Shown: positions 20,537 to 62,489, numbered from the stretch's first letter. The stretch: DNA of 64,000 nt from an uncultured Verrucomicrobiae bacterium (GCA_963764165.1 CAVXRD010000002.1:448001-512000); one strand, 5' to 3'. Made by a program: numbers and translations. The notes: generated from the sequence alone by a model not told the origin.

Positions 20537-20560
20537 GAATGGAGCCAGTTGACGGATTTG
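20537..20560 (-). repeat. att core, left boundary copy of the tRNA-Thr 3' end
   Basis: gaatggagccagttgacggatttg versus gaatggagccagttgccggatttg at 62411-62434. Confidence 0.92.
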
Positions 20561-20667
20561 GGCTGCGTTCACGATTCAGCTACGAGGAGAATATTGATTC
20601 TTCCCTCCGAGAACCAGCACCATTTGGCTTTACCCCTCCACTACTCTTTCATTACTCCGTCGATGCT

Positions 20668-20691
20668 TTCACTGACAGTTTCACCGACAGT
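20668..20691 (-). repeat. Arm-type repeat set B (ACTGTC(G/A)GTGAA x2), probable integrase arm-binding sites
   Basis: The minus strand reads ACTGTCGGTGAA ACTGTCAGTGAA at 12-bp spacing. The same motif occurs at 23136-23159. Confidence 0.75.
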
Positions 20692-20717
20692 CGCCGCCGA
20701 ATTCAAAGGGATGATCT

Positions 20718-21107
20718 CTACGCCCAGATACGGCGGATGGCATAAGCGTCGAAGGCGAAGTCGGCACTAACAATCGGAAAGTCCTCGACCTGGCATTGGG
20801 CGGCCATCAGGCGGTCAAATGGGTCTCGATGATGAACGGGCATCGCCACGACCGCAGCCACATGCGGCAACTCAATGGCAAGCACCTCAATCTGGTTTAA
20901 TTGAAGTTGGCGGGGTATGAACTGGTCGAAGGGTTGAGCCAGCGTGAGTTTGCCCAGGCTGACCTTGATCGCTAACTCCCACAAACTGGCCATGCTCAAC
21001 AATCGGCGGTTGTCGGGATCCTGAATCAACGATTGCGCCCGGCTGCTGAGGCGGGGATCATTGGCGATGAACCAAAGAAACGCGTGCGTGTCCAGCAACA
21101 GGTTCAC
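20718..21107 (-). CDS. vapC: PIN-domain toxin, VapC family (type II TA)
   Basis: MNLLLDTHAFLW...SMASLWE...HHRDPFDRL...SAD; overlaps the upstream small gene by 4 nt. Confidence 0.92.
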   Translation of the reverse strand: MNLLLDTHAFLWFIANDPRLSSRAQSLIQDPDNRRLLSMASLWELAIKVSLGKLTLAQPFDQFIPRQLQLNQIEVLAIELPHVAAVVAMPVHHRDPFDRLMAAQCQVEDFPIVSADFAFDAYAIRRIWA

Positions 21108-21310
21108 TTCATGTAAGGCTCAAAGTCCGCCAACGGTGCGTCGAAGTCTTCCGCCATGCTGACCAACCCTCGGGCGCTGCCTGGCTCGATGCGAGCCAGC
21201 GTCTTGACGGATGGCTCCCTGGCCAGCAACTCCACAAGCTGCAACAACGCCGTCTGCGCCGAATCGGGCAGCGTCTTAGCCTTCGAGTAAATTAATTCCG
21301 CTGTACTCAT
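21104..21310 (-). CDS. Antitoxin (DUF2281-like / VapB)
   Basis: 68 aa ending PGSARGLVSMAEDFDAPLADFEPYM, typical of partners of this PIN subfamily; lies directly upstream of the toxin. Confidence 0.8.
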   Translation of the reverse strand: MSTAELIYSKAKTLPDSAQTALLQLVELLAREPSVKTLARIEPGSARGLVSMAEDFDAPLADFEPYMK

Positions 21311-21345
21311 GGAGCTAATCTAATTGCTCCCAGGCTGGCATGCAA
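21311..21345 (-). promoter_or_regulatory. Sigma70-like promoter of the TA operon, probably leaderless, with overlapping inverted repeat
   Basis: Minus strand TTGCAT-17 bp-TAGATT, then 6 bp to the ATG. The inverted repeat GGAGC-N10-GCTCC (21311-21330) covers the -10 element. Confidence 0.6.
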
Positions 21346-21474
21346 GCTCCGGGACCGTGGCCGGTTGAGTGGAAGGGGAGCGCGTCGGCGGGTCGCCACT
21401 TCGCCACAATTCGGAATTACTCGCCGACTGCTCGCTAACGTCTCGCCGCCAATTTCATTCACGCTGGCGGGTGA

Positions 21475-22170
21475 GTGGAAAACATTGAGACACAAAGCAG
21501 CGAGGTAAAACGAGCTGAACCGGAAAGCGAGCCATTTAGCTCGCCGGTTCTGCGGTCGGACGTAGCTAAAACTGGCATAGTGGAAAGACCGGGGGCGGAG
21601 CGGCGCGGAGCGCCGCCCGCCCCCGGCCTTCCTTGTCTATTGAGTAACAACTCAGACAAGGAGGTCGTCGAACCCTTGGGGGAAAATGCGGAAGAGGTGC
21701 CGAAATTCAACGTCCTGACAGGTGGACACAAGAGAACAGCCTTTGTTCTGGCGGAAGAAATCATAGGCCTTGCCAACGAATTCGGATTGGAGCGATTGGG
21801 GTTCTTCACGCTGACGTTTTCTGACCGCGTGCAAGAAATGAAGGAAGCCAATCGCCGGTTCAACAATCTGAACAGGCGCGTATTAAAGGCACGTTACCAG
21901 CGGGCAATTGTCGTCACGGAGCGTCAGAAGTTGGGCCGTGTCCATTTTCATCTGCTCGTGGTGTTGCCCGTGGATATTCGCACGGGCGTCGATATTGAGG
22001 CGTTCAAGCGTGGGCACTATCAAACCGCAGGGAAGGCATTGCGCTCAGAGTGGGCCTTCTGGCGGAAGACGGCACCGATGTACGGCTTTGGCCGTCATGA
22101 ACTGCTACCCGTCAAGTCGAACAAGGAAGGGATTGCCCGCTACGTCGGCAAGTATGTTTCCAAGAATATC
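21475..22170 (+). pseudogene. Rolling-circle replication initiator (HUH endonuclease, phasyl/inovirus-like Rep), probably 3'-truncated
   Basis: Motif 1 FFTLTF, motif 2 VHFHLLV, motif 3 ARYVGKYVSK. After ~22170 this frame reads as nonsense while another frame reads as protein. Start uncertain. Confidence 0.65.
21589..21660 (+). other. Double hairpin, candidate rolling-circle origin (dso)
   Basis: CCGGGGGCGG(A)GCGGCGC-GGA-GCGCCGCCCGCCCCCGG (17-bp stem), followed by CTTGTCT(ATT)GAGT-AACA-ACTCAGACAAG. Confidence 0.5.
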
Positions 22171-22538
22171 CGGCAAGCCGAGTTCTCCTGTGCCGTCCAC
22201 GCAACAGCCCCGATTGGTCCGTTATCCAGGAATTTGAGGAAGGCTCCGCCTACGCCAGAAATCACGGACGCACGGAAGTTCTGGTGCAGGGCCAAAATGT
22301 TCGGGACGTGGTCATGGAGTATGTCGCTCAAGCGAATCACACGCTCCGCTTTTCGGAGCGCAATCTTGTGGCTAACGCGCAGAAAATGGTGTGGCGCCAA
22401 TTCCCGGAACACAACCCCGGCAAGGTCGTGGAAGCCTTGATGGAGCACTGCGATAAGGCGGTCACGCACAATCGCTCGATTGGCGAGAGCCAGTCGGAGG
22501 CCCAAGACAACCGTCGATCTCGCGGCATGAGAGTATGA
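22161..22538 (+). pseudogene. C-terminal fragment of an unknown protein, fused out of frame to Rep
   Basis: Open frame QEYPASRVLLCRPRNSPDWSVIQEFEEG...DNRRSRGMRV*; its stop overlaps the next ATG (ATGA). Confidence 0.4.
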
Positions 22539-22888
22539 GCATCCCGAAGGACAGGCCGTTAAGTTCGGAGCGGGAAAGGTTCCTGAATCTACGGCACCTT
22601 CCTGCGCAATTAAGCGCAAGTGAAGCGTCGCATCTGCTGGGCTGCGCTCCGCACGACGTTCCCGTCTTGGTTGCCCGGGGCTTGCTTAAGCCACTGGGCA
22701 ATCCGACTCCCAATGCCGTTAAGTACTTCGCCCGCGTCACGCTGGAGGAATTGAGCAATGATGCGAAATGGGTCTTTCGCATCAGGGCCGCCATTAACGA
22801 GTTCTGGCGGATGAAAAACGCCGGGCGCGCTGCCGTTGAATTTCAAATGTCCGAGCAGACTCAAGACGCGGCCCAGCGTGTCGCCTGA
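22535..22888 (+). CDS. Excisionase-like / MerR-type HTH DNA-binding protein
   Basis: LPAQLSASEASHLLG..HDVPVLVARGLLKPLG (Xis-like winged HTH pattern); lies immediately before an att junction. Confidence 0.6.
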   Translation: MSIPKDRPLSSERERFLNLRHLPAQLSASEASHLLGCAPHDVPVLVARGLLKPLGNPTPNAVKYFARVTLEELSNDAKWVFRIRAAINEFWRMKNAGRAAVEFQMSEQTQDAAQRVA

Positions 22889-22940
22889 TTTTATTTCATA
22901 TTGACTAGCGCGGCTTTGATTCTCTTTAGCCCCCTTTGCG

Positions 22941-22973
22941 CGGACACCAACGGACACCAAAACGGACACCAAA
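22941..22973 (+). repeat. Arm-type repeat set A (CGGACACCAA x3)
   Basis: Copies at 22941, 22951 and 22963. The same motif occurs on the minus strand at 62344-62366. Confidence 0.8.
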
Positions 22974-23068
22974 CGTGTTAAAAAAGGTATAGGCTGGTAA
23001 ACGGAATTATCCTTGATTACCGAGGGAAAACGGGTATATTTTACCTCGTAAACGCGGTGAAAAATGCC

Positions 23069-23097
23069 CAAATCCGGCAACTGGCTCCATTCCTAAC
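23069..23097 (+). repeat. Internal, inverted att core (third copy of the tRNA-Thr 3' end)
   Basis: caaatccggcaactggctccattcctaac is the exact 29-bp reverse complement of 62406-62434. Similarity continues to caatggtttag. Confidence 0.92.
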
Positions 23098-23135
23098 CGC
23101 GTGTGCGGCAATGGTTTAGAACCGCCGGACTGGCC

Positions 23136-23159
23136 ACTGTCAGTGAAAGTGTCAGTAAA
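23136..23159 (+). repeat. Arm-type repeat set B
   Basis: ACTGTCAGTGAA AGTGTCAGTAAA at 12-bp spacing, ~47 bp from the core CCA. Confidence 0.75.
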
Positions 23160-23271
23160 TGGGGGTGCGGCGCAACTGCTCGCCCACAACTCCGACACTA
23201 CTCCGCTGAAACTCGCCCACTGCTCGCTAACGCGATGCGAGTGGACTGGTTCACAATTCAGTGAATCAGTT

Positions 23272-24117
23272 ATGAAACAACGATTCATCTTGTTCCGGCG
23301 AGCGGGCGTTTTCTACGCCGAGGAAACGGCAACTGGCAAGCAAACCAGTCTCCGCACCAAAGACCAAGCCGAAGCCATCACCCTGCTGAACACCAAGAAC
23401 GAGGCCACCCGGCAACCGGCCATGAACCTGCAAATCGCCCAAGTCTATTTGCAGCACGCCGACCCGACGTTGGCGCAGCGGACATGGCAGGATGTCATGG
23501 AGGCCATGCTGCCGCTCAAGAATGGCCCGACGCAGGCGCGGTGGGCATCCGCAATGAGGGACAGGGCCTTTGATCTCATCCGCAGCCGCAAATTGATGGA
23601 GACGGCATCCGAGCATTTTTTGCAGGTGTTGAACGCCGGCACGATTTCCACCAATATGTTTTTGCGCCGTCTGCATCATTTCGCGGTGGGGATGCACTGG
23701 CTGCCGTGGCCAGTCCTGCCGAAGCTCAAATGGCCCGCCGTGGAGCACAAGGAGCGCCGGGCGATCACAGCCGAGGAACACCAGCGAATCATTGACCGCG
23801 AGCACAATCCCGAAATCCGGGCCTATTACCAGCTTTTGTGGCACCTGGGCGGCTCGCAAACGGACATTGCAGATTTAAACGCCGAGGACATTGACTGGAA
23901 AGAACGCACGGTTTCTTACCAGCGGCGTAAAACTGGCGTGCCGGTCATTATCACTTTTGGCGCGGAGGCGGCCAGCATGTTAGAGTCGCTGCCCAAGTTA
24001 GGCCCGTTGTTTCCGAGCATGGCGCGAATCAAGGAGAACCACCGCGCCAAGATGTTCATCAAACGGCTCAAGACGGTGGGAATTTCCGAATCGGCAAAAC
24101 CAGATAACGCTGATTGA
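23272..24117 (+). pseudogene. Tyrosine recombinase/integrase (IntB), C-terminally truncated
   Basis: Starts MKQRFILFRR at 23272. Close paralog of 61160..62239 up to KRLKTVGI(S) at ~24087, after which it lacks HSYR, LGH and the catalytic Tyr. Confidence 0.88.
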
Positions 24118-24322
24118 GTGATCTGGCGGGGGTTTTACTTTCTGTCAAAAGCTTTTGAAACCGGTTTGCGTCCACCATGACAATAATCCGCCGTGCCTGT
24201 GCCAGGGCTTTTGAACCGAGTAGATACCTTTCAAAGTGAACCGGGTCAAATTCGTAAGTTGAGAAAACCGCGAACCGCGCGTTCTTCCCCTCGAAAAACG
24301 TACTGAATTCCAAGGGTTTCAT
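24068..24322 (-). pseudogene. N-terminal fragment of a PLD-superfamily-like protein (defence-associated)
   Basis: FAVFSTYEFDPVHFERYLL...RIIVMVDA resembles N-termini of PLD-like defence proteins. It is translationally coupled to the 594-aa gene and cut at the junction with IntB. Confidence 0.5.
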
Positions 24323-26103
24323 TTTTTCTGCATTCGTGCCAGCTCCCCTTTGAGGAATTTCCCGCCTTCTGCCGTAAGCATCGCCAGCCGCCGGTCATTG
24401 TCGTCGTGTTCCAACAGCGCCAGGTCTTTTAAAATCTGCACCGCCGAATAAAAGCGCGAGTTTTCCACGACAATGTCGTCGTAGCTCAACCCCCGCCACC
24501 GTATTACGCCTTGCTCGCTGTGAAAAAGCGCTCGGGTACCGTCCCAAACTTTTTCATAGGACAAAACCTCGTGCTGTTTTACAACGAAACGGCCAATAAT
24601 CAGCATCGCAATATCCCGCCAGCTTGCCTCCCAAAAATTCCCCAATGATTCCCGAAGTTCCCGCAGCACCACCGGAACTGTTATGTCCCTATAGGGATCG
24701 TGTGTGGCGCCAGCCAGCCAATTGCCGTACGGCCCCTGATTCCATCTTGTGTATCGAGAAACCGTCATCGTCAACAACACGAGGGCGCACGCAATTCCCT
24801 CCGGGGTGGCATACCCCAGATCACGCTGAATGAGTTGACCGGCCAAGTTGTTTTCAGAGAGCGGATGCGAGTAGTTGAAATGTCGGTCGAAATCATCCCC
24901 GGTAACCAGGTCTTCACCTGTGGATTTGAAACCCCCAATTTGGAACAACTGGCACGGGGTTATTTCAAGAAAATCGTCCTCGCATTTTTTGCGCAGCACC
25001 TCACCCATGAATTTCAGTACGCTTTTTGACTTCAAGGAATCTACTATTGTTTCCAGCCGTGTGCCGGCCATCCCCGCCTTTTGTGCGTAACCAACTACTC
25101 CCGCAAACAAACTCTCCAATGCCACCGACAGGAAATAATGGAAATAAAACATTCGCCAGCGGTTCGCGATGTTCTCCAATGGGCGGGATAATTCAAGATT
25201 CAGAACTTTGTTTCTGTCTTCATCGGTTGCCGTGGCGTTAAAATAAACTGCGTCTCTCAACACAAAATGATCCAGCCTGATGCCGTGCGGTGAAACTTTG
25301 TCTGTCAATTCGAGGAATAGTGTCAGGCTGTCATGTCGGAATTTATGGCTTTGTCCCGGACTATGGACCCGGTCAAAAAAAACCTCTCGCAGTAGGGTAC
25401 GATCAGGTGCGCTGGAATTCGTCACTTCGCACAGCCCTCCAAACTCGCCCCATTTTTTCAACTCGCTGGGCTTGCAGCCATCCGGTTCCTTCGTCAGTTT
25501 TACCACTACCGGCAGATGTCGGATCGCGCGTTGATAAGATGAAGCGACACGATTTCCAAGCTCGCTTAATTCAAGGTCGGTAATTTGCTGGTCGGAATCA
25601 TCATCCGTTTCAGCCTCGTCGTTAGCTCCATTTTCGTCCGGTGTTTCATTGAAAAATCCCAAGTGGACGAGGGAATTGTAATAGGCGCGCAACGCTGGGT
25701 TTTTTACAAAACTCAATTGCGAAAACTTCGGGGTTCTACCCGGGTTTGCCGCCAGCCATTGCATCGCCTTTTCAGAGCCAACCAACCTCCCGTCCTCGCA
25801 GGCATCGCCGTTGTGGTGCAACACACATCCGAGCGTCAGAGCCTTTTCCCGCAATCGGACGGCTTCAATCAAGTCAGTGTCCGCCCGGTTGGCCTTCTCT
25901 CGTTTTGAAAAATCCGACACACACCACGGAAGAAATGAAAAATACCTGGCTCGTGGTGTTATGGATGTGATGCAGTGCAGCAGTTCGGAAGAGAGACGCG
26001 CCGAAACACGAAGGGACAAACCCAACGGGTCCTGCGCCTGTGAAATCGGAACCATTTTGCTCCAGGCCAAAAGCACTTTGGAGTTGTCGTTTTTGGCAGG
26101 CAT
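24319..26103 (-). CDS. Hypothetical 594-aa protein with a DPLGL...TxRARY motif (DUF6361-like, defence-island associated)
   Basis: QDPLGLSLRVSARLSSELLHCITSITPRARYFSFLPW; more AT-rich than its flanks; next to Abi and PLD-like genes. Confidence 0.6.
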   Translation of the reverse strand: MPAKNDNSKVLLAWSKMVPISQAQDPLGLSLRVSARLSSELLHCITSITPRARYFSFLPWCVSDFSKREKANRADTDLIEAVRLREKALTLGCVLHHNGDACEDGRLVGSEKAMQWLAANPGRTPKFSQLSFVKNPALRAYYNSLVHLGFFNETPDENGANDEAETDDDSDQQITDLELSELGNRVASSYQRAIRHLPVVVKLTKEPDGCKPSELKKWGEFGGLCEVTNSSAPDRTLLREVFFDRVHSPGQSHKFRHDSLTLFLELTDKVSPHGIRLDHFVLRDAVYFNATATDEDRNKVLNLELSRPLENIANRWRMFYFHYFLSVALESLFAGVVGYAQKAGMAGTRLETIVDSLKSKSVLKFMGEVLRKKCEDDFLEITPCQLFQIGGFKSTGEDLVTGDDFDRHFNYSHPLSENNLAGQLIQRDLGYATPEGIACALVLLTMTVSRYTRWNQGPYGNWLAGATHDPYRDITVPVVLRELRESLGNFWEASWRDIAMLIIGRFVVKQHEVLSYEKVWDGTRALFHSEQGVIRWRGLSYDDIVVENSRFYSAVQILKDLALLEHDDNDRRLAMLTAEGGKFLKGELARMQKK

Positions 26104-27170: not shown

Positions 27171-27177
27171 GGAAATA

Positions 27178-27300: not shown

Positions 27301-27972
27301 TTATCGTCGGAGCATGATGCCCAACATCAGCCCGAACGAAACGAGCAGAGACGCAACCAAAAGATAGGCGAACCAGTCCCGCTTGGTCAGGCGCTGCTCC
27401 AACCGCTCCCGTTCTTTGTTCATTTTTTCCCGCGCCATATTGAAATCCTCCTTTGCCTGGTTCCACGATTCAGTTCCCTGATTGAGATCGTCCGAGATTT
27501 TTCGGGCGACAGCCTCAAGCTCCCGCGCTTTCGAGCATATTTGGGTGGCGATGCCGTGGATGACATCGTTGTAACCTGACACCGTCATGTCATATTGCTT
27601 TAATCTTCCGTCTATTGCTTCGATGGTGGTCTTGGACTGAGCCGCAATCTGTCGGCGGTGGTCGGCTTGGACGGCGTCCAACATTTTTTTGGAGTCGCTG
27701 GCAAGCCGACGCGCATCATCCAGTGCGCTGTTGAATTGCGCCGAAAAGCGGGCGCGGTGGCTGGCTTGGTCTTGCTGCCAATCTTTTTGAGAATCCCTCA
27801 GAATATGAGGCAACCGTCCGATGGCTCGCCATTGGACCTTGGTCAGCAAGGCCAGTTGGACTGGAAACGAGTTTTCATCGCCGCTGCACCATTCGGCCAG
27901 AATTTTTCGCAGGCGCTTCGCCTCTGCCGGATTGACGCCGTCACACAACAAATCAAAGTCGGTGTCGATCAT
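27301..27972 (-). CDS. Hypothetical coiled-coil protein with C-terminal transmembrane helix (mobilisation region)
   Basis: 223-aa ORF, helical, ending WFAYLLVASLLVSFGLMLGIMLRR; begins 3 bp after the ATPase gene. Confidence 0.65.
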   Translation of the reverse strand: MIDTDFDLLCDGVNPAEAKRLRKILAEWCSGDENSFPVQLALLTKVQWRAIGRLPHILRDSQKDWQQDQASHRARFSAQFNSALDDARRLASDSKKMLDAVQADHRRQIAAQSKTTIEAIDGRLKQYDMTVSGYNDVIHGIATQICSKARELEAVARKISDDLNQGTESWNQAKEDFNMAREKMNKERERLEQRLTKRDWFAYLLVASLLVSFGLMLGIMLRR

Positions 27973-27975
27973 AAA

Positions 27976-28794
27976 TTACTCTCCAAAATTAAGTTGTGGT
28001 TGCGGCCTCTCGGTTTTCCATTCCCGTTGAGGCGGCAATTTTGGTTCAGGCATGAGCGCCGTTGGCAAGAGCGACTCCGCAATCGAGTCGTATTGTTGAA
28101 ACATCCGTTGCATGGCCCACTGGATTTCCCCGGCCAGCAACCGTTCCAAGTGGCCTGCTTCGATGCGGGACAATTCGGCGAAGCTCAAACCGTGCTTCGC
28201 GTTGGCCTCGGCCTTTTCTGCGGCCAGCAACGTCGTCGGTGTCACGGTCGGCAGCGTGAGGGTCTTCGCCCCGAATTCTGCCAATTGCTGTTCCAGTGGC
28301 GAACCTTTGAACAAGTCGCCCCTCGCCTTGGCCGGATTATGGACGATGACATAATCCACCCGGTCGCCCGCATACAAGAACAGTCGTCCCGCGTTGGTCA
28401 TGCTCTCCGTGTCGTCGGTTGGAAACAGGAAGAAGGTCAATCGCACGTCCTGTTCGGCGCAGACATCGAGCACCTGCAATTCCTCCAATGCCGCCATGAT
28501 GAGCGCATCCGCCTGGGCGCGTGTGTCAATGACGTGAACCGGCGCGGCGTCTTTGAGCACCCGGCGAAAAAGACTGAGCAAGGCCGTCTTGCTCTCGTGC
28601 TCATTGCCAAGTTGATACGAACGGACGGCATCCTTGTGCCGACTGGCAAACGTGTGGTGCCGGTCGTCGAGGTCTGATCCGTTCCATTGAACGCCAAGCT
28701 GGTCGAGCCAGGCCGTGCGGAATTCCGCTTCAAAGCTTTTACCAAGGTTTCCTTTGGACTGTGGATTTAAGTGAATACGTCGTGTGATGTTCAT
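27976..28794 (-). CDS. ParA/MinD-like P-loop protein (TraL-like mobilisation accessory)
   Basis: Deviant Walker A QSKGNLGKS, DLD motif, VIDT. Confidence 0.7.
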   Translation of the reverse strand: MNITRRIHLNPQSKGNLGKSFEAEFRTAWLDQLGVQWNGSDLDDRHHTFASRHKDAVRSYQLGNEHESKTALLSLFRRVLKDAAPVHVIDTRAQADALIMAALEELQVLDVCAEQDVRLTFFLFPTDDTESMTNAGRLFLYAGDRVDYVIVHNPAKARGDLFKGSPLEQQLAEFGAKTLTLPTVTPTTLLAAEKAEANAKHGLSFAELSRIEAGHLERLLAGEIQWAMQRMFQQYDSIAESLLPTALMPEPKLPPQREWKTERPQPQLNFGE

Positions 28795-29192
28795 AATTTA
28801 TTTGGATCGTTAAGGTTTAGACTTTCAGGACTCGGTTGGCGAAACGAACGTGCGGCCGGAATGGCCGCAAGAACCGGCTTGCGGTTTGATTCTGGCCGAC
28901 TGGCCGACTCATGTGGGAGGATGGGTGGCGCGGACAGCGTCTGGCCTTCGTCCTCCCAATGATGCCGCCCCTGCCGCTTCAAATATCTGCGGTAGAATTG
29001 ATGCAGACCTTGGAGCGTGATGCGGCAGCCTTCTTCAACTACGAGCCGTTCGGCGATTTCCCTCCACGTTTTGCGCTGCTGGCGCTGTTCGCGAATGATC
29101 GCCACGAATGGCTCGACGCGGCTGTGAAAGGCGCGTCCGCCGCCATTTCTGGCCGCCACTGCGTTCGTTTTCGTTTCCGATTCCATTGCCAT
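28791..29192 (-). CDS. Small HTH DNA-binding protein (probable relaxosome accessory/regulator)
   Basis: SRVEPFVAIIREQRQQRKTWREIAERL..EGCRITLQGLHQFYRR; start 29192 or 29186; coupled to the ATPase gene. Confidence 0.55.
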   Translation of the reverse strand: MAMESETKTNAVAARNGGGRAFHSRVEPFVAIIREQRQQRKTWREIAERLVVEEGCRITLQGLHQFYRRYLKRQGRHHWEDEGQTLSAPPILPHESASRPESNRKPVLAAIPAARSFRQPSPESLNLNDPNKL

Positions 29193-29284
29193 AACTTTAA
29201 ACCCGCAATACTCGACTGCGTTAACGGGCAGCAGGCGAGTTAGCCCGATTTGTGGGAGAGTTAAGCCGATTAGGTTTTGCACCT

Positions 29285-29343
29285 GTTGAAAAGTGCTGAA
29301 AGGCGTTGAATCGCTGCGTTGAAATCCGTTGAGACGTGTTGAA
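29285..29343 (+). repeat. Six helically phased G(T/C)TGA(A/G) hexamers
   Basis: Copies at 29285, 29295, 29305, 29318, 29328 and 29338. Confidence 0.55.
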
Positions 29344-30156
29344 TCTGTCAACGCCCTTCAAGGCCTTTCGACACGAGAATTCGTGCAGATCGGCGCATAG
29401 CCGCCAAACCTACGATTTGTTCGTAGGGGTAGGGCGTCCATCTTTTAATTCCACACGCATAGAGTGGAAACAAACGCAATTTTGCCTATGAAAGTGAGGC
29501 GAATGCTGCCGTGTGCCAATGTGTGAATGAGAAATGCGTCCCGGTTCCAGCAATTCAATATGTGACCGTTCCCATGCACTGAACGCGTGACCCGAAGCCG
29601 GAGCGGAACGAAGCGAGCCGAGGGGTTATGGGGCGGCAGGCGAAGTGAAGCGTGGCTGAGGGCACGCGTTGAGTGCGAAACCCGCATGGATGTTTCCGGT
29701 TGAGGCGCTTTGTCTGTCCGGTTTTCGGTGGCGGAAGGGGAAAAGCGGGCAGTCAAGGGGCCGGAAAACGCCGCGCCATCGTCTCGCCCACAACAACCAT
29801 CTGCATGATAAAAAAATCGGTCTGGTCCACGTTTGGAATCCTTCGGGCAACAATTTCAGACCGAGCCAGTTCGATATTCTGGTGAAATCGGGTTAATTGC
29901 GCGTCTCCATCCACCGTTTTGAACGTTCGGGCCATCCTGCGCCTGGCCCATAGGAAAACGGTCGTGGATCACCTCTGGCTAAATCGAAACGAGCGTCAAA
30001 TTGGTTTAATCTGTTTATTCGAAGCCTGCTCTCGTTATTATGGCGGTCGAATTCTGTAATGACAATGCTGTTCATCGAATTCAATTATGTGGAAACGGAT
30101 AGCTCAACGGCCTGGTTTAAGGCAGATCCCGGAGATCGGCGAAGGGGCCACCTATT

Positions 30157-30682
30157 CCAAACGATGAAACCAGGAGGACCGATTATGCGCTTCGCATCCC
30201 GCATGGCCTAAGTTTGCTCCTCACGCATGAATTTGATTCGAAAGTGACCGGACTAGACGAATTCCCCCGGAGCGACTGGCCCAACGTGCGTGTCGTTCAC
30301 TGGTCGTTTGACCTCATGGTTGGCTGCGGAACGGCGCTGTTTCTGTTATCGGCGGCGGGAGGATTGCTCTGCTGGCGACACCGCCGGCTGCCTGATATGA
30401 AATGGTTTCTGTGGGCTCTGGTGATCTGTGGGCCTCTGGGCTTCGTCGCCATTGAGGCCGGCTGGGTGGTCACAGAGGTCGGAACGCCAGCCGTGGATCA
30501 TCTATGGCGTTATGCGGACGGAACAAGCCGTCACGCCCATGCATGGGATCGCGGCGCCCTTCGCAATGTTCACGGCGCTCTACATTTTCCTAGGCGTTGT
30601 CGTGGCCGTTCTCCTGCGCCGCCAGTTTCTGCAAACCTCCAATCCGCTTCCCGGCCCCTCTACGCCTTCAACCCATGCTTGA
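30157..30682 (+). pseudogene. cydA: Cytochrome bd oxidase subunit I, 3' fragment with frameshift
   Basis: LRIPHGLSLL..VHWSFDLMVG..AIEAGWVVTEVG, frameshift at ~30482, then RQPWIIYGVMRT; the 5' part is missing. Confidence 0.85.
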
Positions 30683-30989
30683 GACCATCGTTGCCACTTT
30701 CATTCTACTTTCGCTGATCTTATATGCGCTCCTAGGCGGCGCAGACTTTGGCGGCGGCATTTGGTATTTGCTGGCAGCCGGCCCGCGGTCCAGACTGCAA
30801 AGGAAAGCCGTGGCCGATGCCATCGGACCAATTTGGGAGGCCAACCATGTATGGCTGATTCTCGTGATCGTTTTGCTGTTCACCGGCTTTCCGCGCGGAT
30901 TTGCGTCGTTGATGACCGCGCTGAACATCCGTAAGCGTCACGCCGAGCGCCTCTGTAACAAGACAGCATTTTCGTCATAGCCTTTTGCT

Positions 30990-31400
30990 ATGACATCTAC
31001 ACAGAGCTCTGGTCAGATTCTTAAAACCGATTCATTGGCGCGCCTTCAGACGCCCCGACTGCGCAAAGAGCAGTTGCTGGATGAGTTTGAGCGCAGCGGG
31101 TTGAGTTGTCCTAAATTTGCTGGGCTGTCAGGGGTTAAGTATTCGACCTTCGCCGCCTGGGTGGCCAGGCGCAAGCGGAGTCGTTCCACGGAAGCCCCGC
31201 TGGCCAAGGGTCCCGAGGAAAAGGCCCAGGTGCAGTGGTTGGAGGCGATGGTCGATCAGGCCAGGGTCGCGACTTCCAAGGAGACATCCGTGCTGAAAGT
31301 CTATTTCGGCAAAGACGCTCGCGCCGAGATTGCCGATGCCCGGCAAGCCGAGCTGGCGGCGGCGCTGTTGCTGGCTCTTAACACACCATCGCGATGCTGA
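30990..31400 (+). CDS. tnpA: IS66 accessory protein TnpA
   Basis: FERSGLS..FA...GVKYSTF..W HTH; first ORF of the IS. Confidence 0.85.
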   Translation: MTSTQSSGQILKTDSLARLQTPRLRKEQLLDEFERSGLSCPKFAGLSGVKYSTFAAWVARRKRSRSTEAPLAKGPEEKAQVQWLEAMVDQARVATSKETSVLKVYFGKDARAEIADARQAELAAALLLALNTPSRC

Positions 31401-31750
31401 GTTTTTCCGGAAGCATCAAAGTGTTGCTGGCGATGGAGCCGTGCGATCTGCGCAAGAGTTTTAATGGCCTCCATGGTCTGGTCACCGAGCGGCTGGGCGA
31501 GGATCCCCGCCAAGGCGCGATCTTTGTGTTTACCAACCGCCGCCGAACCCGGCTCAAAATGCTCTGCTGGGATGGCACCGGACTTTGGCTTCTGACGAAG
31601 CGCCTCGAAAATGGCACTTTCTTCTGGCCGCAGACGGTGGATGCCGGGCAAAAGAAAATGTCGCTGACGCCGCAGGCTTTGGCGATGCTGACTGATGGCG
31701 TTGATTTGCGGGGCGGCACCTTGCGGCCGTGGTATGAGCGGCAGCCATAA
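31394..31750 (+). CDS. tnpB: IS66 accessory protein TnpB
   Basis: PCDLRKSFNGL..FVFTNRRRTRLKMLCWDGTG.WL..KRLE.G.F.WP. Confidence 0.93.
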   Translation: MLSFSGSIKVLLAMEPCDLRKSFNGLHGLVTERLGEDPRQGAIFVFTNRRRTRLKMLCWDGTGLWLLTKRLENGTFFWPQTVDAGQKKMSLTPQALAMLTDGVDLRGGTLRPWYERQP

Positions 31751-31817
31751 AAAAGTGAGGGATTTTCTTAATTATACTTGACTGTAGGGGCGTTTTCCGT
31801 TAAACCCTTGCTCTGTC

Positions 31818-33359
31818 GTGACGGAGCAGGAACTTCAACTGGCCCAACTGCTGGAAAAATGCCAGCAGGCCTTGACTGAATCGCTGCGGAGGGAGGAAGC
31901 CCTCCGGCGGGAAAACACCGTCCTTCGGCAAAAGGTGGATGCCTTGGTCCGCCGGGTGTTTGGCTCCAGCAGCGAGCAGATAAATCCGGCCCAGTTGCAG
32001 TTCTTGTTGCAAGGACCGGAGCCAATCAAATCGGTCGTTGATGTTCCGCCAACCATCGCTCCGACGGTTAAACCATCCAAGCCCGCCGCCACTGAAAGCA
32101 AACCCCGCTTGCCGGAAAACCTGCCGGTGGTGGAAGAAGTCATTGATCCAGACGTGGTCAAAGCTCAACCGCAACTCTGGCGTTACATTGGCCAGGAGGT
32201 GAGCGAACAACTGGATTACGAGCCGGGCCGTTTTCTGCGCCGCCGCACCATTCGCCGCAAGTATGTTCACCGGCAGGACCAGGATCGCCCGCCTATTGTG
32301 GCGCCGCTGCCTGAGTGTTTGCTGGAGCGCGGCATGGCCGCGCCGGGATTGCTGGCCCATGTGCTGGTCAGCAAGTATTGCGACCACATGCCGCTTTACC
32401 GGCAGGAACAGATGTATCGGCAGCGCCACGGCGTTGCACTGCCCCGGCAGACGCTGGCCCGCTGGGTGGAACTGGCGGCGGATTGGCTGCGACCCATTTA
32501 TGAACAAATCCTCACCGGAGTGATGGCTGGCGGCTACGTGCAAGTGGACGAAACGCCAATCCAGTTCCTGGAACCAGGCCATGGGAAAACCCGGCAAGGT
32601 TATTTTTGGACCTGCAGCCGTCCGGGAGGTGATGTCGTCTTTCGGTGGGAAACCAGTCGCGGAACGCAGTGCCTGAACAATTTGATCCCGGTTAATTTTC
32701 GGGGAGTCATCCAGTGTGATGGCTACTCGGCCTATCGCTCCTTTGCCGACAGCCGCAATGGAACCGTCCAGTTGACAGGTTGCTGGGCCCATGTTCGGCG
32801 CAAGTTTTACGAGGCCCTGGAGCAATCGCCTCGCACGGCGGCTTGGTTCCTGGGTCAAATCCAGCAACTTTATCGAGTCGAAGCCAAGCTGAGAGAGCAT
32901 CGAGCGGGTCCGAACTTGCGCGCCGCCCACCGGGCCAGCCAAAGCAAGCCGGTCGTTCAGCGACTTCAACGCGCCCTGGTCCGGCTCAAGGCCAGCCATC
33001 GCTATCTGCCGCAAAGTCTGCTGGGCCAGGCCATGGATTATGCCTTGGGCCAATGGCCAACCCTGAGCGTCTACCTTGAAAAAGGAAGCGTTGAAATAGA
33101 CAACAATTTAGTCGAGAATTCCATTCGTCCCACGGCGGTTGGAAAGAAAAACTGGCTCTTTGTCGGAGAAGCCGGCGCTGGCCAGCGCGGAGCGATTGTT
33201 TACAGCATCATCGAAAGCTGCCGCCGCCGAAACATCGATCCATACGCATACCTCTGCGATGTTCTCGCCCGCCTGCCTCGAATGACCAACCACCAAATAC
33301 CAGAAGTCACCCCAGGAGCTTGGGCCAAATCTCGCCGCCCCTCTGCAAAAGCAGCGTAG
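31818..33359 (+). CDS. tnpC: IS66 DDE transposase TnpC
   Basis: FGSSSE, KYCDHMPLYRQ, QVDETP, QCDGY, CWAHVRRKF, IDNNLVENSIR. Confidence 0.95.
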   Translation: MTEQELQLAQLLEKCQQALTESLRREEALRRENTVLRQKVDALVRRVFGSSSEQINPAQLQFLLQGPEPIKSVVDVPPTIAPTVKPSKPAATESKPRLPENLPVVEEVIDPDVVKAQPQLWRYIGQEVSEQLDYEPGRFLRRRTIRRKYVHRQDQDRPPIVAPLPECLLERGMAAPGLLAHVLVSKYCDHMPLYRQEQMYRQRHGVALPRQTLARWVELAADWLRPIYEQILTGVMAGGYVQVDETPIQFLEPGHGKTRQGYFWTCSRPGGDVVFRWETSRGTQCLNNLIPVNFRGVIQCDGYSAYRSFADSRNGTVQLTGCWAHVRRKFYEALEQSPRTAAWFLGQIQQLYRVEAKLREHRAGPNLRAAHRASQSKPVVQRLQRALVRLKASHRYLPQSLLGQAMDYALGQWPTLSVYLEKGSVEIDNNLVENSIRPTAVGKKNWLFVGEAGAGQRGAIVYSIIESCRRRNIDPYAYLCDVLARLPRMTNHQIPEVTPGAWAKSRRPSAKAA

Positions 33360-38139: not shown

Positions 38140-38143
38140 AGGC

Positions 38144-38434: not shown

Positions 38435-38465
38435 AATTTTGTCCTTGGGTTGCTTTGTGAGTGTT

Positions 38466-39785: not shown

Positions 39786-42566
<2,781 letters not shown>

Positions 42567-56806: not shown

Positions 56807-56842
56807 AATTGTTGACGATTCCTCTTCATTGGAGTGTTTCGT

Positions 56843-57388: not shown

Positions 57389-57582
57389 AATTTTTCTTTC
57401 TTTGCGCGCTTTTGGATTTGTCGCCATTGGAACCTTAATGCTTGGATCGGGGTTTTAACATACGGTGTTCTCCCCACGAAGGAGTGCCGACAGACGTCTC
57501 TGAACATACAATTCGGCGTAACCCGACTAAACTTCCCCACTACCCATTAACGCAGGCGACTTTGAACATCGTACTTTGGGTC

Positions 57583-60471
57583 ATGCTTTCGCCCAAAGCG
57601 CAATACAGCCTGGCTGACGCCAAACGGTACTTCAGGGAACACCTGTCGGCTGGTGAGTATTACGCGGAAGGCCAACAAGTCCGGGGCCAATGGTACGGCA
57701 AAGGGGCGGCAGAATTAGGACTGACGGGCGTCACGAATGTCGAACAGTTTGAGCGGCTCTGCGATAATCTTCATCCGCAAACGGGCCAGCGCCTGACGCT
57801 GCGCCAGAAAACTACCCGGACGGAATCGGATGTGGACGGCACGGAGCATGAGTACGCCAACCGCCGGGTGTTTTATGATTTCACCATATCGCCGCCAAAG
57901 TCGGTTTCCATCGCCGCCCTGGTCGGCAACGACCGGCGGATTGTCGAGGCCCACGAGCGGGCGGTGACGATGGCAATGGAGCAATTGCAAACCTTTGCCT
58001 CCACTCGCATCCGCAAGGATGGCCAATGTACAGACCGCACGACGGGCAACATAGTCGCCGCCACGTTTCGCCACGGCACATCGCGGGCGCTGGACCCGCA
58101 CTTGCACACCCACTGCATTGTCTTCAACGCCACTTATGACGCGGTGGAAGCTCGATGGAAGGCATTGCAGAACCATGACATGCTCGTGGCGCAAAAGTTC
58201 GTCGAGAACGTCTATTACCACGAACTGGCGCGGTCGCTACAGGAATTTGGTTATGAAGTCGGGAGTCGGAATGTCGGCGATTTTCAGATCAAAGGCATTT
58301 CCAAGGAGCTTCGTGATTTGTTCTCCAAACGTCACCGGCAGATTGACGAGAAGACCCGCGAGTTGCTGGCCCGCCAACCTGAAAAAGCCGATGGCAACAT
58401 CGCCGCCATTCGGGAGCATATCTCCCACAAGGAACGCGATAGGAAAGTCCCGGAAATTGGGTTGTCCCGATTGCAGGCCCACTGGGATGATCAAATGACT
58501 TTGGAACAATGGAAATCGTTGCGGAATCTCATTCATGTCCAACCGACGAGTCGGGAGGACGCGAAGGTTGTGGCGGGGCGAGCGGTCGCGTGGGCGGAAG
58601 AACACTTGTTTGACAGGCGTTCGGTGGTCCATGAACACGAGCTTTGGCGGCACGCGCTCGGCTATGCCAGAGGCCAAAACGTGGCTTTGAAGGATATTCA
58701 ATCCGTCACCGGCAAACGTGATTATATCCGCGACGAAAAACATCCGGGCAAAGTTACGACCCGCGAGCATTTGCTCCGGGAATGGGAGATTGTGGACATG
58801 GTTCACAGGGGTCTGCGCCGCCATCATTCTTTCCGCCCGGATTATCATTGCGCCAATCCTTCCCTGGATGCGGAGCAACGACTGGCGGTGGAAAGAATTT
58901 TGGTATGGTGCGGCTTTGTCGCCGTTTTCCGTGGCGGAGCGGGCACTGGCAAAAGTTTCACACTCCGGGAAGTCGAGAAAGCATTGAAAGAGACGGGCCG
59001 GGCCGTCCACGTAATCGCGCCGCAACGCCAACAGGTCATGGACTTGGAAAAAGACGGCTTTCAGAATGTCGAGACGGTCAGTGCCTTTTTGGCGAAAGGC
59101 AGTTTGGAGGCGCAATCGGTCATCATTGTGGATGAGGCCGGGCAGATCGGTGGCAAACAGATGCACACGCTGTTGGAATTCGCCCTGGCGAACGAGAGCC
59201 GCGTGATTCTCTCCGGCGACACCCGCCAGCACGGCGCGGTCGAGGCGGCGGACGCTCTGCGGGCTATTGAAAAGTATTCAGGTGTGCGTCCCATCGAATT
59301 GACCACCATTCGCCGTCAGAATCCAGAACTGGCTAAAACCATCGAGGAACGCGAATGGATCAAACAATACAGACAGGCCGTGGCCGAAGCGCAGGACGGC
59401 AAGTTCGCCGAATCCTTTAATCGTCTGGATAGACAAGGAGCCATCGTCCAATGCAGCTTGGCTGACCAGCATCAAAAGCTGGCGGAACATTACCTGGCGC
59501 TGGCGAAAAACCATCAATCCATAGTGGTCGTCTCCCAAAGCTGGAATGAGATTCATCAGGTCAATGAACAGATTCGTCTGGCTCTCAAAGGCGAAAAACT
59601 GGTGGGCGAGGCTGACAAAGTCCTGACGACATTTCAGCCGGTGGATATGACGGACGCGCAAAAGCGCGATAAACGGTCTTACGATGAAAACTCCGTGGTG
59701 GTCTTCAACCGCAACGTGCGCGGCTTCAAAGCGGGCGAGGCGGCGCGATTGCAGGCCATTACCGAAACGCATGTGGTCGTTGAAAACGAGGGGCATCGCG
59801 TCTCGATACCGTTCAAGCATCTCGACCGAATCACGGTTTGCCAGACCAGGGAATTGGCCTTGGCATCGGGCGACCGGCTGCTCTTGAAGGCCAATGGCCG
59901 CAGCGAAGATGACCGGAAGCTGGCCAACGGCGAACTGGTCACGATCAAGGAAATCCACGAGGATGGCCGCATCGCGCTCGCCGATGGCCGGACGCTTTCC
60001 CCACAATTCCGCCAGTTCGTGCGCGGCTACGCCGTCACGTCCTATGCCTCGCAAGGCAAATCGGTTGATCATGTGTTGTTCTCAGATTCAGCGGTGAAGG
60101 CGGCGACGAACCAACAGCAATGGTATGTGACCATTTCGCGCGGTCGTAAGGGCGTCCAGATTTTCACAGCCGACAAAATCCAGCTTCGCCAAAACGTCCT
60201 CCGCTTCGGGGGCCGCGAACTGGCCTTGGACATCGCCAAAGAATCCTCCGTTCATGCGCTGGCAAAGGCTTGGGGCCGCGATATTGGATACGTCTTGAAT
60301 GTCCAGCATTCGCAGCGTCAAACCGCGCAGCGCCGGGCTGAATTGCTTCAGCGGGCAGAAGTTCAGGAAAGATCCGTATCTGCCCAGCAATCGCAAACCG
60401 TTCGGACGGCGCGGAAAATTAACCCCGCGTACAAGCACAATCAAAATTATGGAGGAGGCATCGGAGTATGA
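57583..60471 (+). CDS. MobF (TrwC/TraI-like) relaxase-helicase
   Basis: Start MLSPK at 57583; EYY, W.GKGA..LGL, D.T.SPPKSVS, DPHLHTH, helicase GGAGTGKS, VDEAG, GDTRQH, YAVTSYASQG. Confidence 0.93.
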   Translation: MLSPKAQYSLADAKRYFREHLSAGEYYAEGQQVRGQWYGKGAAELGLTGVTNVEQFERLCDNLHPQTGQRLTLRQKTTRTESDVDGTEHEYANRRVFYDFTISPPKSVSIAALVGNDRRIVEAHERAVTMAMEQLQTFASTRIRKDGQCTDRTTGNIVAATFRHGTSRALDPHLHTHCIVFNATYDAVEARWKALQNHDMLVAQKFVENVYYHELARSLQEFGYEVGSRNVGDFQIKGISKELRDLFSKRHRQIDEKTRELLARQPEKADGNIAAIREHISHKERDRKVPEIGLSRLQAHWDDQMTLEQWKSLRNLIHVQPTSREDAKVVAGRAVAWAEEHLFDRRSVVHEHELWRHALGYARGQNVALKDIQSVTGKRDYIRDEKHPGKVTTREHLLREWEIVDMVHRGLRRHHSFRPDYHCANPSLDAEQRLAVERILVWCGFVAVFRGGAGTGKSFTLREVEKALKETGRAVHVIAPQRQQVMDLEKDGFQNVETVSAFLAKGSLEAQSVIIVDEAGQIGGKQMHTLLEFALANESRVILSGDTRQHGAVEAADALRAIEKYSGVRPIELTTIRRQNPELAKTIEEREWIKQYRQAVAEAQDGKFAESFNRLDRQGAIVQCSLADQHQKLAEHYLALAKNHQSIVVVSQSWNEIHQVNEQIRLALKGEKLVGEADKVLTTFQPVDMTDAQKRDKRSYDENSVVVFNRNVRGFKAGEAARLQAITETHVVVENEGHRVSIPFKHLDRITVCQTRELALASGDRLLLKANGRSEDDRKLANGELVTIKEIHEDGRIALADGRTLSPQFRQFVRGYAVTSYASQGKSVDHVLFSDSAVKAATNQQQWYVTISRGRKGVQIFTADKIQLRQNVLRFGGRELALDIAKESSVHALAKAWGRDIGYVLNVQHSQRQTAQRRAELLQRAEVQERSVSAQQSQTVRTARKINPAYKHNQNYGGGIGV

Positions 60472-60821
60472 GCCTGAATATGAGAGCATTCGATGATCGT
60501 CTATCGTGTTATGAACTGAGCCGTCAAGTGATGGGCTACCATGTGCCCTTGGACAACGTAAGGTTGGAACTGACTCCCAGCCGGTTTTACTTGCTGCCTT
60601 ATCACCATTTGGAAGTCGCCGAGTTCGAGTCGGCCCATGAAGGCGACATGATTTCCCTTTCATTTGTCAACCATAAGGTGCGAATCACCGGCCGCAATCT
60701 GCGCGACCTGGCCGTTGCTTTTCAGGAACGCGCCGTCGTGTCGGTCACACCCGTGCCGGAACGGTACGGCGCATTGGGGGAATGTGTGCAGGGCTTGGTT
60801 GACTCAATCCAGATTGAGTAA
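60468..60821 (+). CDS. Hypothetical protein coupled to the relaxase
   Basis: ATGA overlap with the relaxase stop; 117 aa; LLPYHHL..V.ITGRNL..L. Confidence 0.65.
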   Translation: MSLNMRAFDDRLSCYELSRQVMGYHVPLDNVRLELTPSRFYLLPYHHLEVAEFESAHEGDMISLSFVNHKVRITGRNLRDLAVAFQERAVVSVTPVPERYGALGECVQGLVDSIQIE

Positions 60822-60898
60822 AGGATTTCGGTCGGCGGGTGTTCGTGGTGCTTGCAGGAAGCGCGAGCGGACCCGATTCCGCCCGCGCCATTTCTGCA

Positions 60899-61150
60899 TT
60901 ACCCGCCAAACGGGCCGCTGCCGTCGTTGGGCGGCTCGATTTCCCACCGAATGACGGGCGGAACTTCCGACAGCCCCGTAGGTGGTCGTATAACCAAGAT
61001 GAAGGTGTGGTTGCCTTTCGTCTTCTTCCGCTCCGCCCGTTGCCCCAAATGCCAGGCAATGAACGGGACGGCAACATACACGAAAAGGCCGGAAACAAAC
61101 GTCCCGTGTTCCCGCAATAGCCAGTCAATCAAACGAAATATCGGATTCAT
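60899..61150 (-). CDS. Small hypothetical membrane protein
   Basis: GGAGG RBS after the integrase stop; one hydrophobic helix. Confidence 0.55.
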   Translation of the reverse strand: MNPIFRLIDWLLREHGTFVSGLFVYVAVPFIAWHLGQRAERKKTKGNHTFILVIRPPTGLSEVPPVIRWEIEPPNDGSGPFGG

Positions 61151-61159
61151 GCTGCCTCC

Positions 61160-62239
61160 TTATTCGTTGACAGCTTGCGCCGCGAGTTGTGTCAGGTTGC
61201 TTGCAGGCTGTGCCGCCGCATTTACGCGCGGCATCGGCACTATCTTCCGCTCGTAATCCTCCAGCGATGGCACGATAACCTGCGCTTTTTTGGAATAAGC
61301 CCTGGCGATGGCCTTGGAACTGTGCCCAAGCGCCTGCTGGGCGAACCGCTCTGGCATTCCCACTGTCTTCGCCCGCTCGGCCCATGCGTAGCGATAGCTG
61401 TGCAAGGAAATGCCGGTGATGCCAACGGTTTTGAGCCGCTTGATAAACATCTTTGCCCGGTGGTTCTCCTGAATCCGCGCCATGCGTGGAAACAATGGGC
61501 CTTTTTTCGGCAACGATTCCAATAGCGCGGCGACATCCGCGCCGAAGGTGATAATGACCGGGACGTTGGTCTTGCCCCGACGGTAGGAAATTGTGCGGTC
61601 TTTCCAATCCACGTCCTCGCCGGTCAATTCCGCCATATCAGTCTGCGAGCCGCCCAGGTGCCACAGGAGTTGGTAATACGCCCGGATTTCCGGGTTGTGC
61701 TCCCGGTCAATGATCGCCTGATGCTCGTCCGCTGTAATCGCCTTCCGGTCTTTATGCCTCACTGGCGGCCAGTGAAGTTTCGGCAGGACCGGCCAAGGAA
61801 GCCAGTGCATCCCAACTGCGAAATTGTGCAGGCGGCGCAAAAACATATTCGTTGAGACGGTTCCCGAATTGAGAACCTGCAAAAAAAGCTCGGACGCCGT
61901 TTCCATGAGTTTGCGGTGGCGGATGAGGTCGAAGGCTTTGTCCCGCATCGCCGCTATCCATCGGCGTTGGGTTGGGCCGGTTTTGAGCGGGGCCATTGCG
62001 TCCATGACATCCTGCCATGTCCGTTTGGCCATGACGGGGTCGCCGTGTTGCAAGTAAGCCTGGGCGATTTGCAGGTTGATGGCGGGCTGGCGCACGGCCT
62101 GATTTTTGGCCTCGACGATCTGCCGGGCGGCGTCCTCGTTCGTGGTGTTAAGGCTGGCGCGTTTGCCAGTGACTTTGTCAAAGCAATAATACATCCCACC
62201 CCGGATGCCACGATGAACTAAGCGGTAACGTGTATTCAT
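61160..62239 (-). CDS. Tyrosine recombinase/integrase (IntA), full length
   Basis: SLHSYRY (HxxR), ALGHSS and terminal ARAY; next to the tRNA att site. Confidence 0.92.
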   Translation of the reverse strand: MNTRYRLVHRGIRGGMYYCFDKVTGKRASLNTTNEDAARQIVEAKNQAVRQPAINLQIAQAYLQHGDPVMAKRTWQDVMDAMAPLKTGPTQRRWIAAMRDKAFDLIRHRKLMETASELFLQVLNSGTVSTNMFLRRLHNFAVGMHWLPWPVLPKLHWPPVRHKDRKAITADEHQAIIDREHNPEIRAYYQLLWHLGGSQTDMAELTGEDVDWKDRTISYRRGKTNVPVIITFGADVAALLESLPKKGPLFPRMARIQENHRAKMFIKRLKTVGITGISLHSYRYAWAERAKTVGMPERFAQQALGHSSKAIARAYSKKAQVIVPSLEDYERKIVPMPRVNAAAQPASNLTQLAAQAVNE

Positions 62240-62343
62240 AATTTCCTCACGTAACCGCGATGATAAACTACCCGAAGCCCGGACCGTTAGCGGGTAGTCG
62301 GAGAGTTATCCTCCGTTACCCCTGTTTAAAGCGGGCACACAAG

Positions 62344-62366
62344 TTGGTGTCCGTTTCGGTGTCCGT
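62344..62366 (-). repeat. Arm-type repeat set A
   Basis: The minus strand reads ACGGACACCGAA ACGGACACCAA at 12-bp spacing, ~48 bp from the tRNA CCA. Confidence 0.8.
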
Positions 62367-62413
62367 TGCCGACCATCTGCCACCTAAACCATTGTTGCAC
62401 TAGCAGTTAGGAA

Positions 62414-62489
62414 TGGAGCCAGTTGCCGGATTTGAACCGGCGACCCACGCTTTACGAAAGCGTTGCTCTACCAACTGAGCTAAACTGGC
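62414..62489 (-). tRNA. tRNA-Thr (CGT)
   Basis: GCCAGTTTAGCTCAGTTGGTAGAGCAACGCTTTCGTAAAGCGTGGGTCGCCGGTTCAAATCCGGCAACTGGCTCCA: 76-nt cloverleaf, anticodon loop TTCGTAA, encoded CCA. Confidence 0.97.

Follow-up and report, generated by a model that had tools for sequence, protein, structure and literature searches.

What can a chromosomal island still do when the two attachment sites recognized by its own integrase face each other? The question is raised by a 64,000-nucleotide stretch of DNA from an uncultured Verrucomicrobiae bacterium (GCA_963764165.1 CAVXRD010000002.1:448001-512000; G000:C2:448001-512000 in our numbering, hereafter the window), whose genome measures 7.0 Mb and is 97% complete in 5 contigs. 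The window holds a tandem tRNA-Thr array of three elements, A, B and C, of one integrase family, in which the junction between A and B is turned around. An initial annotation of the same DNA had described an island wired to invert rather than excise; as a design this is not supported, since the breaks lie inside four genes and not at attachment cores, and the relatives of A and B have direct ends. Our preferred reading, in which we have moderate confidence, is instead that an illegitimate inversion with deletions occurred in the tandem A-B-C array and left element A grounded.

A tandem tRNA-Thr array with one inverted junction

The integration target is the tRNA-Thr(CGT) gene at 62414-62489 (- strand), the 3′ end of which recurs as the core of attachment (att) sites, whose anatomy we describe after bioRxiv 10.1101/2023.11.06.565760. 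Three such cores had been annotated initially, at 20537-20560 (-), 23069-23097 (+) and 62406-62434 (-). All three are borne out by our search of position and strand, but the count was incomplete, as it missed a fourth, decayed core at 5246-5274 (-) that forms the distal end of the array. The right core (62406-62434) coincides with the tRNA 3′ end and is the core of attL-A; the middle core (23069-23097) joins attR-A to attL-B and is inverted relative to the other three; the left core (20537-20560) joins attR-B to attL-C. The middle and right cores are identical at 29/29 bp, and the left core differs by one change, a mismatch that falls in the crossover stretch. Genome-wide, the 20-mer core occurs four times when up to 2 mismatches are allowed, as compared with 0 occurrences of a reversed control. 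The flank of the fourth core resembles the left site at 80% over 51 bp, and no arm pair was found beside this core.

Read from the tRNA gene, the array passes through attL-A, intA, the MobF relaxase gene and the cargo of A to the inverted stretch (intB remnant, arm B, core, arm A, xis-like gene and alt remnant), and from there through the rep remnant, a toxin-antitoxin pair, arm B, core and decayed arm C to the gene of a 4924-residue protein and the decayed core. The arm sites that accompany the cores are of distinct types. Arm A forms a pair downstream of attL-A (62343-62366, -) and stands in three copies upstream of the middle core in attR-A (22940-22973, +, starting at 22940, 22950 and 22962), whereas arm B forms one pair downstream of the middle core in attL-B (23136-23159, +) and another upstream of the left core in attR-B (20668-20691, -). 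The annotated layout of the middle site (armA-core-armB-intB) and its inversion are therefore real, with the reservations that arm A is a triplet and intB a remnant; at the left site arm B and core were correctly seen, and a decayed arm-C pair (about 20472-20495, -), which marks the left end of the integrase-less third segment and matches the left ends of C-type elements in relatives, was overlooked. With one mismatch allowed per copy, the tandem arm-A pair occurs only twice in the 7.0-Mb genome, both times in the window (22950-22973, +, and 62343-62366, -). The arm-B pair occurs four times, namely at the two window sites, beside a related integrase at tRNA-Thr(TGT) and ahead of a core on contig C5, and all four adjoin a core. 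The genome-wide counts of cores and arm pairs are far above chance and support both annotated arm types, and the spacing also agrees: downstream arms begin 47-48 bp past the CCA, and upstream arms stop 96 and 107 bp short of the core.

The inverted block comprises 22175-24088 (1.9 kb) and truncates four genes. At junction J1 (22168-22176, +), the HUH rolling-circle Rep of element B (21691-22176, +) is cut right after its catalytic Tyr motif, where 12/12 Rep homologues continue in frame, and passes with a 2-bp overlap into the 3′ portion of alt (22175-22538, +), an unnamed 208-codon open reading frame (ORF) of element A; the join coincides with 9 bp that match the att core exactly. At junction J2 (24082-24088), the integrase gene of B, cut before its HxxR motif, meets the reverse complement of a PLD-domain (PF13091) gene (24086-24322, -) that is cut at codon 79-80 of about 725 and retains its first 79 codons. 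The overlap at J2 is 2-3 bp if IntB is read Ile-Thr-Gly, as are 6/6 of the homologue stretches with that motif that were displayed; a 7-bp microhomology was rejected because it needs Ile-Ser-Gly at this point in IntB. Searches of the genome found neither a C-terminal-only integrase match that could represent the missing part of intB nor the missing N-terminus of alt. With both junctions outside the att cores, the orientation seen today is no clean product of recombination between two att sites.

Intact relatives of both elements have direct ends, which bears out the annotated inversion of the A-B junction. A sister of A (G016:C7), with identities of 93% to the integrase end and 95% to the end that carries alt, the xis-like gene, arm A and core, has both cores on one strand (attL and attR direct). 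Position 22175 is precisely where its alignment to the window sets in, and in three genomes five matches begin at 22175-22176. The arm pairs also lie on one strand in a B-type element of about 3.6 kb (G010:C44), ordered int, reversed rep and armB-core, and in another of about 4.2 kb (G021:C123), ordered core-armB-int, toxin-antitoxin and armB. Window positions 20537-21652 are in turn 85% identical to the right end of B in G016:C9. Because the relatives of A and B are direct and 20537-21652 is collinear with the B end, only 22175-24088 is flipped; a block inverted from 21.4 kb onwards, and thus the annotated limits of 21.4-24.1 kb, can be rejected on the same grounds. An order survey of 401 genomes found the cores on one strand in 7/7 other contigs with two or more exact cores, as did a family survey of 31 genomes in 2/3 multi-core contigs, and plain tandem junctions (armA-core-next, armB-core-armA and armC-core-armA) are common in relatives. 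The inverted layout was not found in any relative searched, most of these genomes being fragmented. Gene order around the tRNA-Thr gene is not conserved in the six relatives tried, which offer no empty site to fix the far boundary, and GC skew is too flat to orient the segment.

Integrases and arm codes

IntA (61160-62239, -) is full length at 359 residues and belongs to an integrase family present in 46/61 genomes searched. The family is abundant, with 6636 hits among 8000 candidates scored, homologues labelled Verrucomicrobiota and nine copies in this genome, of which four are truncated. Read from an alignment to XerA, the position of the first catalytic arginine (Arg-I) is occupied by Ser198 in IntA, followed by Arg221, Lys223, His280, Arg283, His306 and Tyr315. 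Across 120 homologues the Arg-I column holds Ser (97) or Ala (23) and Arg in none, an Arg two residues before the catalytic Lys is found in 119/120, and the other catalytic residues are kept in 110-120 of 120; the complete R-K-H-R-H/W-Y set of heterobivalent integrases does not occur among these homologues. From this conservation IntA is presumed to be active. The AlphaFold model of IntA (mean predicted local distance difference test score, pLDDT, 81) shows an N-terminus of three strands and a helix, and its best fold match is full-length lambda Int (E 5e-10). Lambda-type heterobivalent integrases and IntA share the predicted N-terminal fold, direct arm repeats flanking the core and a small Xis-like gene by attR. 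In contrast to them, IntA is only ~16% identical to lambda Int, its Arg-I is replaced, and a scan for integration host factor sites at the att sites gave no clear consensus, only 2-mismatch matches and nothing above chance. The Xis-like ORF of 117 residues (22535-22888, +) lies before attR-A and is 97-98% identical to two copies before attR-A in G022; the nearest named clusters, Cox and HTH_17, are a lead only, and we infer a role as Xis. No description of the integrase family or of this att layout was found in the full text of Creative Commons PMC papers and bioRxiv.

IntB is represented by a 281-residue ORF (23272-24117, +) with real sequence to about residue 272, where homology ends. The remnant lacks the HxxR, His and Tyr of the catalytic His/Arg/His/Tyr and is catalytically dead. 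The other B-type integrase of the genome, at tRNA-Thr(TGT) (G000:C2:3564248-3565046), is truncated as well, and a matching armB-core right end lies near the start of contig C5 (G000:C5:2216-2370).

Among 36 integrase starts with upstream DNA (these integrases are kin and the counts descriptive), arm type tracks the N-terminal 45 residues rather than the remainder of the protein. An A-like N-domain goes with arm A in 8/9 cases, a B-like one with arm B in 6/6 and a C-like one with a GGACACC arm in 8/9, the ninth showing the arm on separate inspection; the remaining 12/36 have different N-termini and mostly different repeats. Three proteins with an A-like N-terminus whose body is only 45-46% identical to IntA carry arm A, and IntB and two relatives whose body is 81-82% identical to IntA carry arm B. 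This match points to arm codes that are specific to the integrase and follow its N-terminal domain, as is expected of the arm-binding domain of a heterobivalent integrase, and it supports the annotated picture of two sister elements on one tRNA target with arms of their own. Similar short motifs lie at 21400-21440 (upstream of rep) and at 23180-23230 (between arm B and intB), and they also follow the arm in other family members.

Origin of the inverted block and behaviour of the locus

In the preferred history C, the oldest element and one without an integrase, would have integrated first, followed by B, a small Rep and toxin-antitoxin element, and then by A, the newest and mobilizable one, all in tandem at tRNA-Thr. 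A rearrangement outside the att sites would then have turned the 1.9-kb A-B junction around, with a loss of DNA to either side that ruined intB, rep, alt and the PLD gene. As the junctions truncate four genes, we read them as an illegitimate inversion and not as a designed switch.

What such a locus can do follows from its att pairs. Only the right and middle sites form a matched attL/attR pair whose integrase is intact, and their orientation is inverted. Lambda Int acting on inverted sites gives inversion. Symbolic recombination of the A pair by IntA flips 39.3 kb and yields attP-A and a tRNA-core-armB site, in agreement with the annotated flip of ~39 kb. Element A would be grounded with its ends facing each other: IntA together with the Xis-like protein could only invert the 39.3 kb, leaving attP-A in the chromosome, and IntA alone would recombine attP-A with the tRNA site back to the present state. 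The general rule for site orientation and recombination outcome, and the dispensability of Xis for attP x attB in lambda-type systems, are taken from PMC4111918. In the flipped state the two B ends would be direct, such that a B-type integrase from elsewhere could excise A+B. Because IntB is dead, the TGT copy truncated and the left core mismatched in the crossover stretch, the cargo would be locked in unless such an integrase arrives; for the same reasons the annotated 2.5-kb flip through the arm-B pair is not supported.

Several points weigh against the preferred history. Both junctions rest on one assembly: of the 24 public runs listed, none has half of the words of the 20.3-25.3 kb region (best share 0.21), and in the four runs examined as contigs none of the 32 pieces listed of 448 bridges J1 or J2. 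IntA lacks the canonical Arg-I, and the Xis-like ORF has no match in Pfam, NCBIfam or PHROG, that is, no curated family. Cores on opposite strands also exist in relatives. The exception in the family survey, G016:C17, has two left ends 214 kb apart, and a looser core scan, which also adds the direct G016:C7, adds G016:C9, where back-to-back cores (385077 and 444243) with unmatched arms lie 59 kb apart. We rejected G016:C9 as a second case on account of its unmatched arms, its different tRNA-Thr types and an integrase gene between the cores that looks unrelated by eye; next to this gene lies a tRNA-Thr cut at its anticodon stem. Finally, two other histories give an identical end state.

If the junctions were an assembly artefact or came from a chimeric read, the real locus would simply hold A, B and C in direct tandem. 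Chimeras are known to leave inversions with loss of flanking DNA, both junctions come from this assembly alone, and public contigs continue alt and the integrase intact past 22175 and 24088. One of these contigs is identical to the window from 22175 on and has different letters before it, another of 9.7 kb departs at the same position with 87% identity, and loose contig ends at 24088 continue as an intact integrase; they confirm the breakpoints relative to intact elements, not the junctions themselves. However, an artefact fits poorly with a genome in 5 contigs at 97% completeness, with the absence of the missing intB and alt pieces from the rest of the genome, and with the position of J1 on a core-like 9-mer, which is expected in about 0.5% of cases for a random error. 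Among the top repeats listed, none of at least 18 bp that would account for an assembler error lies at J1 or J2. Metagenome contigs contained no exact match to 24 bases taken from the PLD side of J2. We consider an artefact unlikely.

The core-like piece at J1 also suggests a mechanism within the preferred history, and not a separate one, in which the integrase cut rep and the PLD gene at secondary sites that resemble the core, and the ends were then trimmed and joined. The J1 9-mer occurs three times in the window, in the middle core, in the right core and at J1 as its sole non-att copy, and a core 9-mer of any kind is found within 5 bp of just 0.47% of genome positions. At the position of J2, the PLD loci hold a perfect core 9-mer in 1/7 and a single mismatch in 1/7. 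Judged from sequence, the family does use secondary sites: in G016, a composite of C and A sits in a glycoside hydrolase gene (L034, G016:C17:223379, and G016:C7:483121), the flanks of which read as one frame with the crossover within 10 bases shared with the core. The split gene is, as we take it from its NEP motif, of the GH5 family. Furthermore, the active site resembles that of IntDOT, the integrase of CTnDOT, and Ku is encoded in the genome. However, the motif was noticed after the fact, a core 9-mer near two junctions being expected by chance at about 1%. The partner sides are not core-like in register, Lys-Pro in 5/8 PLD proteins disrupts the core motif at J2, and the junctions overlap by 2 bp at J1 and, on the Ile-Thr-Gly reading, by 2-3 bp at J2. 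We hold secondary-site cutting as a possible mechanism, tentatively and with some leaning against it; template switching is an alternative to abortive integrase cutting with end joining. An inversion driven by insertion sequences (IS) was rejected, as the only cargo IS identified (IS66, about 31-33.4 kb) sits 7 kb from J2.

The two other histories would make the present state itself the product of an integrase. Either B took up a circle of A by an illegitimate event, after which IntA inverted it through attP-A x tRNA, or A took up a circle of B, after which 2.5 kb were inverted by a B-type integrase. Symbolic inversion indeed links all three states by single att recombinations, IntA is intact, and the lambda-type rule cited above from PMC4111918 would spare IntA the need for Xis. 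However, this requires an intermolecular illegitimate event plus an inversion where plain tandem junctions are common in relatives, and the B route needs an integrase that was not found intact here. Even taken together, we regard these routes as quite unlikely.

If the inverted layout were instead a selected, regulated switch, the 39-kb flip should change expression of the cargo. IntA, the xis-like gene, both arm-A arrays and the two identical 29-bp cores are all intact, as a switch would demand. Against this, the layout was not found in the relatives examined, four genes are broken, the cargo operons move with their own upstream DNA, the tRNA would come to join only the dead intB, and only one sequence near the middle core resembles a promoter, weakly so (9/12), with the promoter scan not above chance. 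A switch therefore seems to us highly improbable, and the layout is probably an accident that traps the island.

Cargo, known systems and significance

Element A encodes a MobF (TrwC) relaxase-helicase (57442-60471, +), and its cargo (26194-57427) includes AbiD/Abi_2, IS66, PPK2, a second ATP synthase operon, an aldolase, a phosphoketolase, a heavy-metal P-type ATPase and a glucan phosphorylase; the sister element in G016:C7 shares 93% identity over 27301-29764. The second ATP synthase operon (34476-41827), ordered beta, epsilon, two small ORFs, a, c, b, alpha and gamma, adjoins the PPK2, aldolase, phosphoketolase and phosphorylase genes, and its gene order resembles that of N-ATPase operons. 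A fragment of cytochrome bd subunit I lies beside the IS66 element, within 30214-33359. Next to J2, an ORF of 594 residues (24319-26103, -) precedes the cut PLD gene; in 7/9 related loci it is followed by a full-length one, of 719-727 residues in 6/7 of the loci that hold it, the seventh ending with its locus. The two (24086-26103) form a conserved pair, a candidate for defence that is broken here. The 594-residue ORF has a weak PADLOC match to ZacA (E 2e-5), and the pair lies beside AbiD. In B, a DUF2281 antitoxin and PIN toxin pair occupies 20718-21310 (-). The integrase-less segment C is filled by the 4924-residue beta-helix/YDG protein (5433-20207, -), with 11 beta-helix stretches plus YDG domains, and very large ORFs of 1942 and 2343 residues lie beyond the far core. 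Elsewhere in the genome, a tRNA-Cys array of the same integrase family (G000:C2:3255000-3278100) has three direct cores, each unit with its own arm repeat.

Like an integrative mobilizable element (IME), element A has an integrase beside a tRNA gene whose 3′ end is repeated at the far end, and a relaxase (MobF, above cut-off) without its own mating apparatus, conjugation-channel families being absent from the 43 window ORFs scanned. Unlike in an IME, the repeat is inverted for A, and neither the A pair nor the B pair of arm-matched att sites is direct. Taken together, tandem IMEs at one site such as SGI1 and SXT (PMC2297512) and grounded prophages or islands (PMC6379469) have in common with this locus a site-specific tyrosine integrase, stacked att sites, the use of secondary sites, a mobilization relaxase with no conjugation genes of its own in the window, and a loss of excision through damage to att sites or integrase. 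Here, by contrast, one core serves elements that differ in arm code, and what grounds A is the way in which an intact attR points and not the loss of this site, so that inversion should remain as a live reaction.

The closest parallel to the wiring is found in the tripartite integrative and conjugative elements (ICEs) of Mesorhizobium (ICEMcSym1271), which have the same interleaved att pairs and a non-excising attL x attR. According to PMC5882170 and PMC8627217, their excision needs several integrases in sequence, and their origin has been proposed to go through only chromosomal inversions between single elements. The window differs in having two pairs and not three, one shared core and target, a second integrase that is truncated and dead, no conjugation genes found, and a single genome. 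As there is one live integrase, where multipartite ICEs have at least two with att pairs of their own, and the layout was seen once, with no conservation or transfer between strains in the genomes searched (most of them fragmented), the locus is not a member of this class but at most an accidental, broken two-part analogue of a tripartite ICE.

It is conceivable that the locus is a half-built two-part element. In such a model the junction was flipped at secondary sites by the element's own integrase, an IntDOT-like enzyme without Arg-I; IntA and Xis now reversibly invert the 39 kb in a minority of cells, and any B-type integrase that arrives completes, in two steps, the excision of A+B as a 42-kb circle able to re-integrate via attP-A. 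We find the model doubtful. If true, it would offer a snapshot of how multipartite-ICE wiring starts, with orthogonal arm codes made by a one-domain swap on a shared core.

The active site of the window family has a parallel in CTnDOT. The CTnDOT integrase lacks the first catalytic Arg and has a conserved Arg further downstream (PMC8138268), and it tolerates overlap mismatches (PMC2817482). As in IntDOT, Arg-I is replaced in the window family, and the Arg two residues before the Lys is predicted to substitute for it. In contrast to IntDOT, the target here is a tRNA 3′ end, and there is no Pfam arm-binding or SAM domain, as 0/106 family members match the N-terminal Pfam domains of the IntDOT group (Arm-DNA-bind_5 and Phage_int_SAM_5) at E up to 0.05. 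The single secondary site that was reconstructed has 10 bases identical to the core and fits a mismatch-tolerant or a strict rule alike.

The locus thus illustrates one way in which a mobile island may become trapped without damage to its integrase, and it fits the inversion step that has been put forward for how tripartite ICEs arose. Of wider reach is the finding of an abundant integrase family without the first catalytic Arg that combines one tRNA-Thr core with several arm codes. If these codes are indeed set by a swappable 45-residue domain, the family would provide a system for studying arm-code orthogonality and mismatch tolerance outside Bacteroides.

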